DNA of 23,093 nucleotides from an uncultured archaeon (GTDB lineage Archaea > Asgardarchaeota > Thorarchaeia > Thorarchaeales > Thorarchaeaceae): contig CAYHAA010000026.1 of the NCBI GenBank assembly GCA_964354495.1, positions 1 through 23,093 on the forward strand, given 5' to 3'. Under the pieces are notes generated by a model. The model did not search any database, was not told the origin of the DNA, and worked only from the letters and a program-made list of their open reading frames with translations. Positions 559 to 8,698 of the stretch are shown one piece after another. Each line of letters begins with the position of its first letter. The first letter of the stretch is position 1. The translations under genes and the position numbers were made by a program.

Positions 559-2172
559 ATGTGTGCTATGACCGACCCTCACGACAAATATAGAGTCCAT
601 AGAGAGATAGTTGGGGCTCTACTCGAATCCACTGAACCTCTAAGTCGTAGAACGGTCAATAAGATCAAGAACCAAGTCTGTGCGAAATATCACTGTGAAA
701 AGACCCCCTCAAACGCTGATATTCTCGGGGCCACCGATTCTGAAGAGGCTGATCTTCTTCGACCATTTCTTCAGAAACGTCCAGTACGCACAGTTTCAGG
801 AGTAGCTGTCGTTGCGGCCATGACTCGGCCTTATGGATGTCCTCACGGAAGATGTGCATACTGCCCCGGCGGTCCGGAACAAGGAGTCCCTCAGAGCTAT
901 ACTGGGTATGAGCCTGCCACGATGAGAGGCATTCAGAACGAATTCGACCCCTATCGCCAAGTAGAGAGTAGACTGCGCCAGCTCAGGAATATCGGCCACA
1001 GCATAAACAAGGTCGAGCTGATAGTTATGGGAGGGGATTGGTGTTCGAAACCAAGAGAATACCAACACTTCTTTGTAAAGGGCTGCCTTGATGCAATGAA
1101 TGGGGTGGTCAGTGACAACCTAGAAACCTCGATGAAAATGAATGAGACTGCTGCGGTCCGTGATGTTGGTCTGACCTTTGAAACACGTCCAGATTGGGTG
1201 ACGCGCGCGAGCGTCGATGAGATGCTCGAGATAGGTGCAACGCGTGTTGAAATTGGGGTACAGACTCTCTCTGATGAGATACTCACGCTCGTGGAGCGAG
1301 GTCATGGCGTGGATGCCACGGTCAGAGCAACGAAGCTCCTTCGTGATAGCGGCCTCAAAGTATGCTATCATATGATGCCGGGCCTCCCGGGAGCCACTCC
1401 TGAAGACGACATCGAAACCTTCAAGCAGCTCTTTTCAGACCCCCGGTTTCGCCCCGACATGCTCAAAATCTATCCCACTATTGTCGTGAAGCACACGAAG
1501 CTGTATGAGTGGTGGCAGGCCGGGAAGTACACACCCTACACAAACGAGCAGGTAGTTTCAGTAATATCTGCTGCTGTGAGCTCCATGCCTGAATATGTGC
1601 GGATTCAGAGGATGCAGAGGGACATTCCCCTGCATCAGATAGAGGCCGGTCTAAATCAAGGTAACCTTCGCGAACTCGTCGATCGGCAGATGAGAGCCGC
1701 AGGTCTACGGGATCCAACGATTCGGCATCGGGAGATTGGCCATTTTCAGATGCGGTCCGACGAGCAGATAGACCTTGATAATATCCGACTAGTTCGTCGT
1801 GACTATGACGCGTCTGATGGCAAGGAAATCTTTGTTTCCTTTGAAGACCCGGATCTGGATGTGTTGTTTGGTTTCATCCGTCTTCGTGTGCCGAGTGAAG
1901 CTGCTCACAGACCTGAGATTGTCGAGAAACCGTCTGTCATCATTCGTGAACTGAGAGTATACGGCCCTGTCGTCGACATTGGCCATAGAGATGCGGATGC
2001 ATGGCAGCACCTCGGACTGGGTGAGAAGATGATTGCTGCTGCTGAAGAGATTGCTCGTACTGAATTCCATGCCTCCCGGATTCTTGTCAACAGTGGCATA
2101 GGCGTCAAAGAATACTATCGTGGACTGGGTTTTGTTGACAGAGGTCCTTATCTTCAGAAGAAAAGTGCTTAG
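559..2172 (+). CDS. elp3: Elp3 tRNA U34 carboxymethyltransferase (radical SAM + GNAT acetyltransferase)
   Basis: CPHGRCAYCPGG Fe-S motif, QSYTGYEP, ETRPD, RVEIGVQT and LKIYPT, plus the C-terminal GNAT region (IRELRVYG, QHLGLG, SGIGVKEYYRGLGF). 537 aa. Confidence 0.97.
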   Translation: MCAMTDPHDKYRVHREIVGALLESTEPLSRRTVNKIKNQVCAKYHCEKTPSNADILGATDSEEADLLRPFLQKRPVRTVSGVAVVAAMTRPYGCPHGRCAYCPGGPEQGVPQSYTGYEPATMRGIQNEFDPYRQVESRLRQLRNIGHSINKVELIVMGGDWCSKPREYQHFFVKGCLDAMNGVVSDNLETSMKMNETAAVRDVGLTFETRPDWVTRASVDEMLEIGATRVEIGVQTLSDEILTLVERGHGVDATVRATKLLRDSGLKVCYHMMPGLPGATPEDDIETFKQLFSDPRFRPDMLKIYPTIVVKHTKLYEWWQAGKYTPYTNEQVVSVISAAVSSMPEYVRIQRMQRDIPLHQIEAGLNQGNLRELVDRQMRAAGLRDPTIRHREIGHFQMRSDEQIDLDNIRLVRRDYDASDGKEIFVSFEDPDLDVLFGFIRLRVPSEAAHRPEIVEKPSVIIRELRVYGPVVDIGHRDADAWQHLGLGEKMIAAAEEIARTEFHASRILVNSGIGVKEYYRGLGFVDRGPYLQKKSA

Positions 2173-4462: not shown

Positions 4463-4485
4463 TGGCGCCGAGGACGAGATTTCAA
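4463..4485 (-). repeat. Displaced copy of the tRNA-Ser 3' end (att-like direct repeat)
   Basis: The minus strand reads TTGAAATCTCGTCCTCGGCGCCA. 4463-4482 matches 7184-7203 at 19/20 nt. There is no 5' T-stem or other tRNA portion upstream of it. Confidence 0.85.
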
Positions 4486-4680
4486 GCTGGCTAACATTTA
4501 TCTCAGAAACTAGTAGATATTCTAGGACGAATGCTTTCAGAAACAGAGTCAAGTCTGGTTTGAGAATGAATAATCACCTGTGAAAGAGCTGGTAGTTGAC
4601 CAACTTCGAGTTCTTCATTCTTACCTCTTGATTTCCCAGAATAGATATATTCGATTGCCATCTTTCCAAATACAGGGGCA

Positions 4681-6843
4681 ATGATAATGCTACGTGGTTC
4701 GCGTGCCTATCTTTTGTTTTTGTTAATTCTTGTTGTTTCACTTCTTTTTATACAAAAAGTGGACCCAGTATCGGACCAGACACTGTCTACTGAATATGAA
4801 ACTCCTGATTTCATCCCTGTGCTCTCTGAATATACCAACCATAGTCCAATAGAAATCTGGTCCAATCAGGACTTCGAGGATCAGGGTTGGCCTGGTAATG
4901 GGACTGCTGATAACCCCTACATCATCGAAGGCTTGAACATTACATCTGATGGGAGATGTATCACAGTTTTCGATACTACTGTCTACTATAGAATTACAAA
5001 CTGTCGCCTCTCATCATTCGGCGATCGTAGCAATGCTGGAATTCGAACTCAGAATGCCTCATATGGTTCCATTAGCAATTGCATCATTGATACGCATAGT
5101 GAAGGCATTCTCTTAGGAGAAAATTCAAATTACTGCAATGTGACCAACACGATTTGTTACAACAATCTGTTTCTTGGAATTCAGATCAATGGGGACCACT
5201 GCTTAGTCTGTAACAATACTTGCTTCGGCAATTTCATTGGGATTATCGCAGGTGGTAATCAGTACTGCATAGTCTATGAAAATAATTCAACTTTGAATCA
5301 TGGTGGAATTTCAGTATCTTCAAGTCAATTTACCTATGTCCACAACAACACGGTCGTTCGAAATTTCGAGCGCGGTCTACAGGTTGGTTTCTCTGAGTAT
5401 TGCATAATTGAGCAGAACTACGTTTTCAAGAGTGGTACTGACGGGATCTTTCTAGACCATGCAGAAAATTGTACATTCATCGAAAATACTGTCCTAAATA
5501 ACACTGAACGTGGATTCTATATTGAAGATACGATGTACTGCGAATTCCAGTCTAATCTTGCAGCAAACAATACATGGGAAGGTTTCTGGTTGTATGATTC
5601 TGATTCTAACACCTTTATAGAGAATACTGCAACCCAGAACTCAGGCGCAGGAATTGGTATGAATATATTCTGCTCCGGTAATAGAATGTATCTCAATGAG
5701 CTCAGTCTGAATATCATTAATAATGGTCAGGACTATTCAGGCGCAAACTATTGGGACGATGGAGTTTCAGTTGGAAATTACTGGGACGACTATAATGGGC
5801 GTGGATCTTATGCTGTGGGAGGATCAGGCGGCGCTTATGATAACTACCCCTTCTCCTTGGGCGTTATCCCTTACCTACAGCACCCAGAGGACATTGTTGT
5901 TGAGTACGGTTCCTCTAGCAATTCCATATTCTGGGATGCATATGATGTTGACCCGTCTACGTATCAGCTTTACATAGATGAGGTATTTCAGTTCTCAGAC
6001 GCTTGGAATGGTTCACCCATTGTCATAGACATTTATGGACAAGGAATTTCAAACCATAACTATACACTTGTTGTCGCGGATTCTCTAGGAAATTCGGCGA
6101 CTGATACAGTCTTTGTCACAGTACTTGATACAATTGTCCCCTCGATTGATGATCATTCCAATGTCGTTCTCGAGTATGGATCAACTGGTAACACGATAAC
6201 ATGGATCGCCAATGATCTTGATCCATCTAATTACGAGCTATATGTTAATGGAGAATTACAACTCACAGACACATGGAGCAATTCATCCATAAGCATCGAT
6301 ATCGATGATCTTGCGATCTCAGTCTACAATTTCACAATAGTAGTAGCAGATGGCTCAGGTAATTCTGCGTCTGACACCGTCCTTGTTACTGTACAGGACA
6401 CCATTTCACCCCTGGTCGAAAGCCCTTCTGACATTGAATTCGAAGAAGGAGAAACTGGACACAATATCACATGGGTTTCATTTGACCTAGACCCAGGGAC
6501 TTACATCATCTATAGAAATGCGGTAGCTATCGTAAATGAAGTCTGGAACACATCTCAAATCTCCATTTCATTAAACGGACTCTCTGCAGGAACATACAAT
6601 TTCACACTGGTATTGTTTGATAGTAGTGGTAATACCGCAGTGGACTATGTTATTGTGACAGTTGTCACTTCTACCTGCACATCATCAACAGCGACAAACC
6701 CACCCTCAACAACACCAACCAATCCTGACGAAGTCGATTCGCAAATGATTTTGGTGATAGCTGGACTAGGTAGCGTCATTGCGGTGGTTGCGGTCATCGT
6801 TGTCATTATGTTTAGGAAGGGAAAAGATGATGGCATGCCTTAA
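4681..6843 (+). CDS. Cell-surface protein: signal/anchor, NosD-like right-handed beta-helix, three Ig-like repeats, S/T linker, C-terminal TM anchor
   Basis: Hydrophobic N-terminus. Asn-ladder repeats (NxxxxNxxxGxxL). Three ~85-90 aa repeats ending GNSATDTVFVTV, GNSASDTVLVTV and GNTAVDYVIVTV. Then TSSTATNPPSTTPT, and a TM segment followed by RKGK. Confidence 0.85.
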   Translation: MIMLRGSRAYLLFLLILVVSLLFIQKVDPVSDQTLSTEYETPDFIPVLSEYTNHSPIEIWSNQDFEDQGWPGNGTADNPYIIEGLNITSDGRCITVFDTTVYYRITNCRLSSFGDRSNAGIRTQNASYGSISNCIIDTHSEGILLGENSNYCNVTNTICYNNLFLGIQINGDHCLVCNNTCFGNFIGIIAGGNQYCIVYENNSTLNHGGISVSSSQFTYVHNNTVVRNFERGLQVGFSEYCIIEQNYVFKSGTDGIFLDHAENCTFIENTVLNNTERGFYIEDTMYCEFQSNLAANNTWEGFWLYDSDSNTFIENTATQNSGAGIGMNIFCSGNRMYLNELSLNIINNGQDYSGANYWDDGVSVGNYWDDYNGRGSYAVGGSGGAYDNYPFSLGVIPYLQHPEDIVVEYGSSSNSIFWDAYDVDPSTYQLYIDEVFQFSDAWNGSPIVIDIYGQGISNHNYTLVVADSLGNSATDTVFVTVLDTIVPSIDDHSNVVLEYGSTGNTITWIANDLDPSNYELYVNGELQLTDTWSNSSISIDIDDLAISVYNFTIVVADGSGNSASDTVLVTVQDTISPLVESPSDIEFEEGETGHNITWVSFDLDPGTYIIYRNAVAIVNEVWNTSQISISLNGLSAGTYNFTLVLFDSSGNTAVDYVIVTVVTSTCTSSTATNPPSTTPTNPDEVDSQMILVIAGLGSVIAVVAVIVVIMFRKGKDDGMP

Positions 6844-6844
6844 A

Positions 6845-7152
6845 GCAAACATAGAGGCGTCTTTTCCAATCACTGTCCTGCATCACGAAGGCCACATGAC
6901 ACCGGGGACAGACCACCACCATCTCACCAGCAGCTAGGTCCTGCTTGCCAGCTCTGCGGAGGGTCTTCCATTGACCACCGTAGCTCCAGGAGGCTCGATC
7001 TCGACAACTTTAAACCCAATGAGCCGACCAGCAAGAGATACATCGAATTAATTGTCTTCCAATAATGGAGCTCCACTAAGATTCCATCTCAAATTATCTG
7101 TTAGACGATCAAAGTCAAAGTAGTGTTTGCTATCGACTGGTATTAAGACAGG
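6845..7152 (-). pseudogene. Degraded gene: CDC48 N-terminal subdomain 2-like region followed by a RING-like zinc-finger remnant
   Basis: Manual translation gives VLIPVDSKHYFDFDRLTDNLRWNLSGAPLLEDN*FDVSLAGRLIGFKVVEIEPPGATVV (TAA at 7050-7048). A shifted frame then gives KQDLAAGEMVVVCPRCHVAF, and another shift gives *LEKTPLC. No start codon after the tRNA. Confidence 0.55.
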
Positions 7153-7183
7153 TCAGCGATTATTTGTCAATCTAAGAGAGAAA

Positions 7184-7332
7184 TGGCGCCGAGGATGAGA
7201 TTTGTTCGATTCCACGAGATGTAGACTTCTTTGAACTCATGCGTGACAAGCACACCGGTTGCCTTGGATACCAGCTTCCGAAGAAACCGGTTTTCAAGAC
7301 CGGCGCCGTAATCCGAGCTTGGCTACCTCGGC
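7184..7332 (-). tRNA. tRNA-Ser (anticodon UGA) with two introns: 7261-7292 (32 nt, position 37/38) and 7202-7230 (29 nt, position 58/59); CCA encoded
   Basis: Acceptor stem GCCGAGG/CCTCGGC with discriminator G and CCA. Anticodon arm CCGGT-CTTGAAA-ACCGG. Variable arm T-GTG-CTTGT-CAC-GC. T arm ATGAG-TTCAAAT-CTCAT after splicing. Mature length 88 nt. Both introns are flanked by bulge-helix-bulge-type motifs. Confidence 0.93.
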
Positions 7333-7397: not shown

Positions 7398-7829
7398 TTG
7401 GAAAGAGGATTCAGATTCCACGAGCACACGGCTGATATCATCATCGAGTGCTGGGCTCCATCCTTAGTGGAGGCTTTTGAGGAGGCTGCAAGAGCAACAT
7501 TTGAAGTAATCCTCGATCCAACGACAGTTGCCACATCAGAGACTGTTGAATTGTCTGTTCTAGGAATCGACCTGGAGGAGCTACTTGTCGAGTGGATTGG
7601 AACTCTCATCGCATTGATAGACATCAATGACCAATTCTACTCCAAGTTCGAGGTTGATGAGATCTCTCACGAATCAAACGGTTACAGTCTCAAAGGAAGA
7701 GCATTCGGCGAAAGGATTGACCATCATAGACATGTTACACGGACAGAGGTCAAGGCTATGACCTACGCTGACATGAAGATAATTGAGCGCACAGGTAAGA
7801 CAACACTCTGGTTCACTTTGGACCTTTAG
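7398..7829 (+). CDS. Archease (RtcB tRNA-ligase cofactor)
   Basis: N-terminal FHEHTADI and C-terminal EVKAMTY motifs. 143 aa, TTG start. Confidence 0.95.
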   Translation: MERGFRFHEHTADIIIECWAPSLVEAFEEAARATFEVILDPTTVATSETVELSVLGIDLEELLVEWIGTLIALIDINDQFYSKFEVDEISHESNGYSLKGRAFGERIDHHRHVTRTEVKAMTYADMKIIERTGKTTLWFTLDL

Positions 7830-7837
7830 GAGGGCAG

Positions 7838-8698
7838 ATGATGACACTCAAAGTAGCTATTCCAGACACCTCACTGATTGACTGCACAGATCTAAGGCAG
7901 AAGACAGTAAAGGTCGGTCAAATTGCGCGTGCACTAGTCATCTTTCGAGTAGAGGAGGTCATTGTCTATAGTACTGGGAAACTGCCGTCTACACAGACGA
8001 TGGACGTTGACTTGCTTGTGAAACTACTGAGATTCTTAGACACTCCACAGTACCTCAGACGGAGAGTCTTTCCCCAGTCCCCATCGCTACAATATGCGGG
8101 GCTTCTTCCTCCTCTGAGGACGCGCAGTCATCCTCTCTCGTCGAAAGTCACAGACATGACGGTTGGCATAGTGAGATGGGGGATTCAAGTCCGTTCTGGG
8201 AAGATTGACCTAGGACTTGACGAGCTCATTGATTCTCCTATGATGGTGAGCGAACGTGATCCGACCCTCTTCAGGGTTGAAGCGACTACTCCCACAATGT
8301 CTCTGGCCGTCATAAGCAGGTCTGATGTTCCAGTCTATTGGGGATATGTGGCCAGTCGAGCTGGGTGCCTGCTTGATTTACTTAAAGACTCCAGCGATAT
8401 GACGCGAATCGGCTTTTCGAGAAAGGCGCCCCCTTTCCAGAAACTGGAGAAAGACCTGAAATCCACAGTATCCAATACGGGCTCAGTCCTTGCTGTATTT
8501 GGGAGCCCAGACAGAGGTATCCTTGAGCTCTGTGACTCACAGAGAGATGATGTCAAAAATCATATTGATTTCTGGGCAAATACGATAGATGACCAAGGGT
8601 CCGAGACTGTCCGTCTGGAAGAGGCACTTACGGTCACCTTAGGTCTCTTGAACAGCACAGTAGGAAAGGTAATCGCCCGACCTGGCTTCTATGCGTAA
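7838..8698 (+). CDS. SPOUT-class RNA methyltransferase, DUF171/MTH1 (SPOUT1-like) family
   Basis: KVGQIARALVIFRVEE, TPQYLRRRVFP...LQYAGLLPPL, VFGSPDRG and NTIDDQGSETVRLEEA. Confidence 0.9.
   Translation: MMTLKVAIPDTSLIDCTDLRQKTVKVGQIARALVIFRVEEVIVYSTGKLPSTQTMDVDLLVKLLRFLDTPQYLRRRVFPQSPSLQYAGLLPPLRTRSHPLSSKVTDMTVGIVRWGIQVRSGKIDLGLDELIDSPMMVSERDPTLFRVEATTPTMSLAVISRSDVPVYWGYVASRAGCLLDLLKDSSDMTRIGFSRKAPPFQKLEKDLKSTVSNTGSVLAVFGSPDRGILELCDSQRDDVKNHIDFWANTIDDQGSETVRLEEALTVTLGLLNSTVGKVIARPGFYA

Follow-up and report, generated by a model that had tools for sequence, protein, structure and literature searches.

How archaeal tRNA genes gain introns is an old question, for which intron-first, intron-late and transposition ideas were set out in a 2014 review (PMC4090602). 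In a recent census of introns in Asgard archaea (preprint 10.64898/2026.10.13.758758, October 2026), transposition and mobile-element delivery were tested and the route of arrival was left open; a test for exon duplication is absent from that census. For spliceosomal introns, tandem genomic duplication is an accepted route of gain, in which the duplicated AGGT gives both splice sites, and it is the one route of spliceosomal intron gain for which demonstration in vivo has been reported (2012 review, PMC3443670). In the literature that we searched, consisting of sources other than subscription journals, no proposal was found of duplication as a source of the bulge-helix-bulge (BHB) introns of archaeal tRNA genes.

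Here we describe a tRNA-Ser(UGA) gene of an uncultured Asgard archaeon (Thorarchaeota), in which the intron at the canonical 37/38 site (intron 1) is probably a degraded tandem duplicate of the tRNA segment 38-61, placed directly before the original. The origin of this intron is unusually legible and apparently undescribed, and the locus gives a concrete, testable mechanism of intron gain. The window, i.e., the whole stretch of 23,093 nucleotides analysed, is one entire contig of the assembly.

Structure of the tRNA-Ser(UGA) gene

The gene is 149 nt in length, with encoded CCA and two introns, and corresponds to the reverse complement of positions 7184-7332 of the window (Table 1). No tRNA was called in the window by ARAGORN, without or with the intron mode, or by Rfam at gathering thresholds, because the unspliced gene carries two introns; the gene model was put together by hand. 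When both introns were cut out, the 32-nt one at 7292..7261 and the 29-nt one in the T loop, the resulting 88-nt tRNA-Ser(UGA) was accepted by ARAGORN. A BLAST search of the 3.3-Mb assembly (51 contigs) detected no second copy, leaving the gene at 7332..7184 as the sole tRNA-Ser(UGA) gene detected in the genome.

Intron 1 and exon 2 start with the same seven nucleotides, AACCGGT, as reported in the initial annotation of this DNA, which had also placed correctly, at 7255-7303, the region from the exonic ACCGG through CCGGT (positions 27-31). The chance of such a 7-nt direct repeat at one intron boundary is about 4^-7 = 6e-5. Three features were recognized in addition to those annotated: the second intron in the T loop, the palindromic nature of ACCGGT, and a 3x3 internal loop at the 5' splice site of intron 1.

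Table 1. Positions of the tRNA-Ser(UGA) gene, its parts and neighbouring features in the window
Feature	Position	Strand	Remarks
tRNA-Ser(UGA) gene	7184..7332	-	two introns; only self-match in the assembly
Exon 1, positions 1-37	7293..7332	-	anticodon UGA at 7296..7294; CUUG (32-35) at 7298..7295
Intron 1, 32 nt, canonical 37/38 site	7261..7292	-	probable diverged tandem duplicate of 38-61
S-prime in intron 1	7274..7292	-	copy of A38, 3' anticodon-stem strand and variable arm (AACCGG UUUCUUCGGAAGC)
Linker UGGUAUCCAAGGC of intron 1	7261..7273	-	proposed relic of T-stem 5' strand, T loop and C61
CAAG of linker	7266..7263	-	forms the central splice helix together with CUUG (32-35)
3-nt 3' bulge of intron 1	7262..7260	-	GC plus A38
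Exon 2, positions 38-58	7231..7260	-	begins AACCGGU; different variable arm UGUGCUUGUCACGC
Intron 2, 29 nt, T loop 58/59	7202..7230	-	strict bulge-helix-bulge motif
Exon 3, positions 59-76 with encoded CCA	7184..7201	-	
Archease gene (Pfam Archease family)	7398..7829	+	divergent from the tRNA gene
Putative RNA methyltransferase gene (PF02598)	7838..8698	+	conserved upstream neighbour
Island, 2.7 kb	4486..7183	.	beta-helix/NosD-like gene at 4681-6843
Displaced copy of tRNA 3' end (UUGAAAU CUCGU CCUCGGC G CCA)	4463..4485	-	uninterrupted T loop

Predicted splicing of intron 1

In the minimum-free-energy (MFE) fold, the anticodon stem uses the exonic ACCGG while CUUG of positions 32-35 pairs with the intronic CAAG, and this helix is adjoined by a 9-bp hairpin of intron 1 (ACCGGUUUC/GAAGCUGGU). 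The motif is composed of helix H (CUUG/CAAG), a 3' bulge (GC|A) and helix h of 8 bp. At the 5' splice site, AAA faces AUC in the 3x3 internal loop before the 9-bp hairpin (h' = 0), so that the closed 3-nt 5' bulge with outer helix h' is absent and the motif is of the relaxed (hBH) type. Helix H, the 3-nt 3' bulge, the exon stem and the hairpin are common to all 12 introns of the genus at this site, and every one of 24 distinct linkers carries C-A-A-G or C-A-G-G at positions -6 to -3, followed by two nucleotides before A38. The burial of U34-G35 in the splice helix, pointed out in the initial annotation, is the standard design of archaeal 37/38 introns.

Two paralogues of the splicing endonuclease EndA were identified in the genome as PF01974 matches above cut-off (C7:64948-65196 and C6:24745-25002). 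The presence of two EndA paralogues is linked to a broad substrate range in PMC5829648 and in the Asgard preprint (10.64898/2026.10.13.758758). Judging from sequence and predicted folding, intron 1 should be a spliced archaeal tRNA intron of the ordinary kind, removed in vivo; splicing at 37/38 would join ...CUUGAA to AACCGGUGUGC.... In public sequencing runs at most 39% of the sampled words matched; the four runs compared, all in the form of contigs, gave no splice joints, and the one RNA library contained the unspliced, intron-less allele of a relative.

Four forms of the locus in related genomes

Twenty other genomes of the genus contain the gene, with the genes for archease and RNA methyltransferase adjoining 19 of these loci. 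The 37/38 intron is present in 12 and absent in 8 of 20 syntenic genus genes, and the locus takes four forms within the genus: intron 1 with a UUUCUUCGGAAGC-like hairpin plus a differing exon arm; intron 1 with a AGUGUUCUGCACUCC hairpin plus a differing exon arm; no intron 1, the real variable arm being UUUCUUCGGAAGC (L008, L010, L011, L013 and L014); and no intron 1, with an arm of the UGUGUUCGCAC type or the UGUCC...GGAC type. The first 19 nt of intron 1 of our gene, AACCGGUUUCUUCGGAAGC, are identical (19/19) to the exonic positions 38-48 of L008 and L010. Introns of the second family correspond in the same way to the UGUGUUCGCAC-type exon, of which they are a diverged copy (24 matches and one gap pair).

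The comparison was extended to a family set of 69 parsed orthologous genes from 16 genera of Thorarchaeota. The 37/38 intron is present in 32 and absent in 37 of these, and 27 of the 32 introns are of the intron 1 type, 19 of them being exactly 32 nt in length. All of the 27 are within five mismatches of some real exon, and in seven the first 19 nt are identical to a real exon present in another genome. In congeners, UGUCUUCGGACGC is the variable arm of tRNA-Ser(CGA), a gene without 37/38 intron. Since the UUUCUUCGGAAGC-like arms are genuine serine variable arms, the direction of copying is from exon to intron.

Variation was also detected among close relatives. The sister species G017 is devoid of intron 1. 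One set of metagenome contigs, of which the upstream flank is 97% identical, has exon 1 and the UUUCUUCGGAAGC arm followed directly by GCGAG-UUCAAAU-CUCGU and the acceptor end, and is an intron-less allele of a very close relative; a second, independent set of contigs carries the intron-bearing form. A pattern scan over one genome per prokaryotic species gave ten matches to the intact repeat form, all in Asgard metagenome-assembled genomes (by title, seven from Thorarchaeota, one from Hermodarchaeota, one from Promethearchaeota and one "uncultured archaeon"), with no sign of the same event elsewhere in the scanned genomes.

Extent of the proposed duplication

In an intron-less gene the unit from A38 to C61 consists of A38, ACCGG, a 13-nt arm region, AUGAG, UUCAAAU and C61, altogether 32 nt. 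Across genes this unit is 32-34 nt in length, and the modal intron length is 32 nt. The best-preserved intron, that of L031, matches the unit 38-61 of L010 at 28 of 32 positions without gaps, including AUGAG of the T stem, and intron 1 of our gene matches the same unit at 25 of 32. In 300 shuffles the best scores were 5-8, as against 18-24 observed.

The homology of intron 1 to positions 38-48 is, from these alignments, nearly certain, and the extension of the copy over the whole of 38-61 is probable. The case for the 49-61 portion is drawn mainly from the linker starts (ATGAG/ATGG/UGAG) and the 32-nt length; several linkers other than that of L031 start with AUGG, UGAG, UGA or UGG. The last eight nucleotides of the linkers, xCCAAGxC, agree with the T-loop sequence UUCAAAUC at only 4 of 8 positions, a likeness of little weight in itself, given that splicing needs CAAG in any case. 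The linker octamer GCCAAGCC also matches positions 10-17 of the D arm, four of its eight letters being the required CAAG. We infer the duplication event itself, and its exact end at position 61, from this pattern. The initial annotation had offered tandem duplication as one of two explanations of the 7-nt repeat, the other being a conformational switch; the former is strongly supported and involves far more than a heptamer, namely the 19/19 identity to exon 38-48 and the alignment of 32 nt with 38-61, while the latter is not supported (see below).

The copy and the original within a gene are no longer alike. Between the intronic copy and the exon of the same gene there are always 4-12 differences over about 20 positions, and among the genes compared there was no young case with two near-identical units; in L003, the two arms differ by just two compensatory base-pair swaps. 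Because the two units of one gene are never alike in the arm, later divergence, allele exchange or inter-allele recombination must be added to the duplication. The linkers of both intron families end in UAG(A)CCAAGCC-like sequences across genera, a hint that they go back to a single old origin and that the arm part was exchanged later. Conservation is far stronger in S-prime than in the linker: S-prime is identical (19/19) in four species of which the linkers differ at many positions, and the cause may be either exchange with exon copies or selection. On a tree of two neighbouring proteins, which is poorly resolved and discordant with the forms of the tRNA gene, these forms are scattered, and gains, losses and lateral exchange are therefore not orderable. 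The route could have been slippage followed by divergence, unequal recombination between alleles, or integration followed by deletion.

A model for the splicing of a duplicated tRNA segment

The anticodon loop UUGAA (positions 33-37) is the reverse complement of the T-loop sequence UUCAA. Because of this complementarity, a copy of the T loop placed before position 38 would pair with the anticodon loop, and the copy could be spliced. We propose that the duplicated segment carried A38, the 3' strand of the anticodon stem, the variable arm, the 5' strand of the T stem, the T loop and C61. The T-loop copy would supply the central 4-bp helix of the bulge-helix-bulge, a single A-to-G change would yield the CUUG/CAAG helix, the duplication junction would land next to the anticodon stem, in the 3-nt bulge, and the intron hairpin would derive from the copy of the variable arm. 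The archaeal splicing endonuclease could then remove the copy from the pre-tRNA.

Hypothetical exact duplications of 38-61, constructed from three intron-less genes, fold with the exon stem, the UUGAA:UUCAA helix and the arm hairpin. The product is a near-BHB motif, with helix H of CUUG/CAAA and a 3' bulge of UCA; the UCA bulge is still present in L002. Against a background of U33 and A37, only YGA anticodons would complement the conserved T loop, and tRNA-Ser(UGA) would thus be predisposed to this mode of intron gain. The locus may accordingly be pictured as a one- or two-copy repeat, with two units in genes with the intron and one unit in genes without it, and the single unit can bear an arm type that is intronic in other species.

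Alternative explanations

A different route to the same arrangement is that a mobile element integrated by way of a long, tRNA-derived attachment site reaching from position 38 as far as the 3' end, giving two copies of 38-76 of different origin, and that a later deletion took out the element and, with it, 62-76 of the first copy, leaving 38-61 followed by 38-76; unequal crossover between alleles would have an equivalent outcome. The variable-arm types always differ between the two units of a gene, as is expected for different alleles, and the locus is a proven hot spot of insertion, with the 2.7-kb island separating the gene from a displaced copy of its 3' end. Past the displaced copy come a thiolase and a nitroreductase gene, which in other species are found downstream in synteny, and the offset of the downstream flank varies among species. 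For the tRNA-Thr gene of Caldiarchaeum, a link between intron gain and element integration has been proposed (PMC3293823). Replacement of alleles is also in favour of this route, since very different tRNA alleles stand beside near-identical neighbour genes in L016 and L012. However, the 23-nt repeat flanking the island starts in the T loop and not at position 38, the island gene that was scanned showed no integrase domain, the arm differences in L003 are obtainable by ordinary divergence after a local duplication, and no enrichment of mobile elements near gained introns was observed in the Asgard preprint (10.64898/2026.10.13.758758). Taken together, we consider element integration or unequal crossover unlikely as the source of intron 1.

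In L016 (G024) and L012 (G007), from two species with almost identical archease and methyltransferase proteins, the tRNA alleles are unlike in the D loop, T loop, variable arm and the anticodon stem pair, and also in both introns. Recombination at the tRNA gene has thus replaced one allele by another.

The second explanation offered in the initial annotation was a conformational switch that exposes U34 for modification, for example by Elp3, before splicing. In an extended form of it, selection would keep the copy: the nascent pre-tRNA would show a normal-looking anticodon arm plus variable arm, exposing U34 to such an enzyme or being recognized by SerRS-like factors, and would then refold for splicing. 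Both folds can indeed be written, CCGGT (27-31) being able to pair with either ACCGG and the UUUC-UUCG-GAAG hairpin being formed, and the decoy arm is the MFE structure of the nascent chain while no more than about 30 nt of the local segment have been made, and only until the intronic GCUGGU has been added. An Elp3 gene is located in the same window (559-2172). The decoy fold is, however, about 10 kcal/mol worse than the splicing fold, its ensemble probability being 6e-7 at 37 C, 5e-5 at 60 C and 2e-3 at 80 C, and the estimated barrier from the decoy to the splicing fold is only 3.9 kcal/mol. Of the 12 introns of the genus, that of L031 has the highest decoy probability, 0.016; in the other 11 it does not exceed 2e-4.

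Whether the copy follows the stem among orthologues was the test suggested for the switch, and by this test the copy tracks the stem unreliably. The decoy helix is perfectly complementary to the own stem variant (CCGGU or CUGGU) in 12 of the 27 introns and is degraded in the other 15, with one to three wobbles in 11 and a mismatch in 4; four genes with the CUGGU/ACCAG stem retain AUCGG in the intron. Position 42' tends to agree with the stem variant: 10 of 12 CCGGU genes have G and 8 of 15 CUGGU genes have A, counts that are uncorrected for relatedness. This tracking, like the conservation of S-prime, speaks for the switch but is equally explained by exchange with exon copies. The absence of the 37/38 intron from 37 of the 69 orthologues indicates that no such step is required for this tRNA. 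A required switch is therefore rejected, no sign of a regulatory RNA switch was found, and the reading as a whole is very improbable. The "decoy anticodon arm" and the "fake variable arm" are taken instead as historical by-products of the duplication and not as a regulatory device, a caution that intron-exon repeats resembling designed switches can be scars of duplication.

Alternative splicing of two cassettes, in which either unit could be removed to give two tRNA-Ser(UGA) isodecoders with different variable arms, is hardly credible: removal of the linker plus the exon copy (33 nt) would leave a complete tRNA with the arm of L008/L010, and in L031 a second 7-nt repeat, GCAUGAG, flanks the alternative segment, but the motif scan gave no BHB for this excision in L001, L031, L002, L003, L015 or L004, and many intronic copies have decayed (AAUCGG, AAUUGG, AAUCAA) to a poor anticodon stem.

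Intron 2, neighbouring genes and other tRNA genes

Intron 2 forms a BHB with helix H of GUUC/GAAC, bulges of AAA and AAA, and 2-bp helices h and h'. T-loop introns homologous to it occur in orthologues and in the tRNA-Ser(CGA) genes of congeners, and it shows no likeness to the adjoining exon sequence. As a candidate duplicate of 38-58, a segment also of 29 nt, it was set aside, the agreement by eye being about 10 of 29 and near chance. Homologues of the 58/59 intron are present in L019, L026, L027 and L029, the presence being independent of intron 1 among orthologues.

The archease and methyltransferase genes are kept as neighbours at all 19 other syntenic loci of the genus. Archease is a cofactor of the RtcB tRNA ligase. 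The Elp3 gene is of the radical-SAM type, with ELP3_N, Radical_SAM and Radical_SAM_C domains; its distance to the tRNA gene is now about 5 kb, as against about 2.3 kb before the insertion of the island.

For other tRNA genes of this genome, 17 ARAGORN-predicted introns, a set composed of genes other than the multi-intron ones, were compared with their own exons. Only that of tRNA-Arg(CCU) (C24:4404-4541) stood out, with 19 of 23 positions matching its own variable region and T arm. As an exon copy it is a weak candidate, its hairpin covarying apart from the T arm in 26 orthologues. The tRNA-Arg(CCU) intron, 61 nt in length (L034, L035), is conserved in 26 of 28 genus genomes, and the likeness to the exon lies in its 5' part. 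In the tRNA-Ser(GGA)-like gene L111 (G049:C1:81150-81750), the 3' part of the 37/38 intron contains GCUGUUG, a 7-nt copy of the start of the next exon and possibly another exon-derived piece. In this 98% complete genome, 31 tRNA genes were recovered by ARAGORN with introns and 27 by the Rfam tRNA model; with only 27-31 recovered, multiple or non-canonical introns probably conceal a third or more of the tRNA genes. A tRNA-Sec gene was called at C7:73844-73934.

Comparison with known systems

A tandem duplicate of 38-61 remains the probable identity of intron 1. In a wider form, local exon duplication filtered by BHB folding would be a general source of Asgard tRNA introns, and the locus would toggle by slippage or recombination, swapping the exonic and intronic arms; we regard this extension as possible but doubtful.

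The tRNA-Ser(UGA) intron shares with canonical archaeal 37/38 introns (PMC4090602) its position, the 4-bp helix between nucleotides 32-35 and the 3' part of the intron, the intron hairpin, the EndA genes, and the 3-nt 3' bulge beside the anticodon stem with the cut after its second nucleotide. It differs from them in that the 5' site lies in an internal loop, from 3x3 to 7x7, of the relaxed motif, and in that the intron recognizably copies the adjoining exon. With the Asgard census (preprint 10.64898/2026.10.13.758758) it has in common the lineage, the repeated gains at BHB-permitting sites, the two EndA paralogues and the introns missed by standard annotation.

Transposition of introns in Thermoproteales (Fujishima 2010), as cited in PMC4090602 and the Asgard preprint, is likewise a gain of BHB introns at the DNA level, with related introns in several genes or species. 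In the cited account, however, the introns are alike across tRNA types and positions, whereas the intron described here resembles its own exon at one locus. The tRNA-Thr gene of Caldiarchaeum (PMC3293823) is similar in showing population variation of an intron at one locus, together with a mobile element and a displaced tRNA fragment; in the model proposed there, in contrast, the intron arrives ready-made in the attachment site of the element, and no homology between intron and exon is reported.

Intron gain by duplication in spliceosomal systems (PMC3443670) is similar in that an exon segment stands in tandem and one copy is removed as RNA with the product unchanged, leaving direct repeats at both intron ends and an intron homologous to the neighbouring exon. 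The two systems differ in the means of recognition: the spliceosome reads AGGT, while here a protein endonuclease reads the shape of the RNA, and the competence for splicing would come from the complementarity between the anticodon loop and the T loop.
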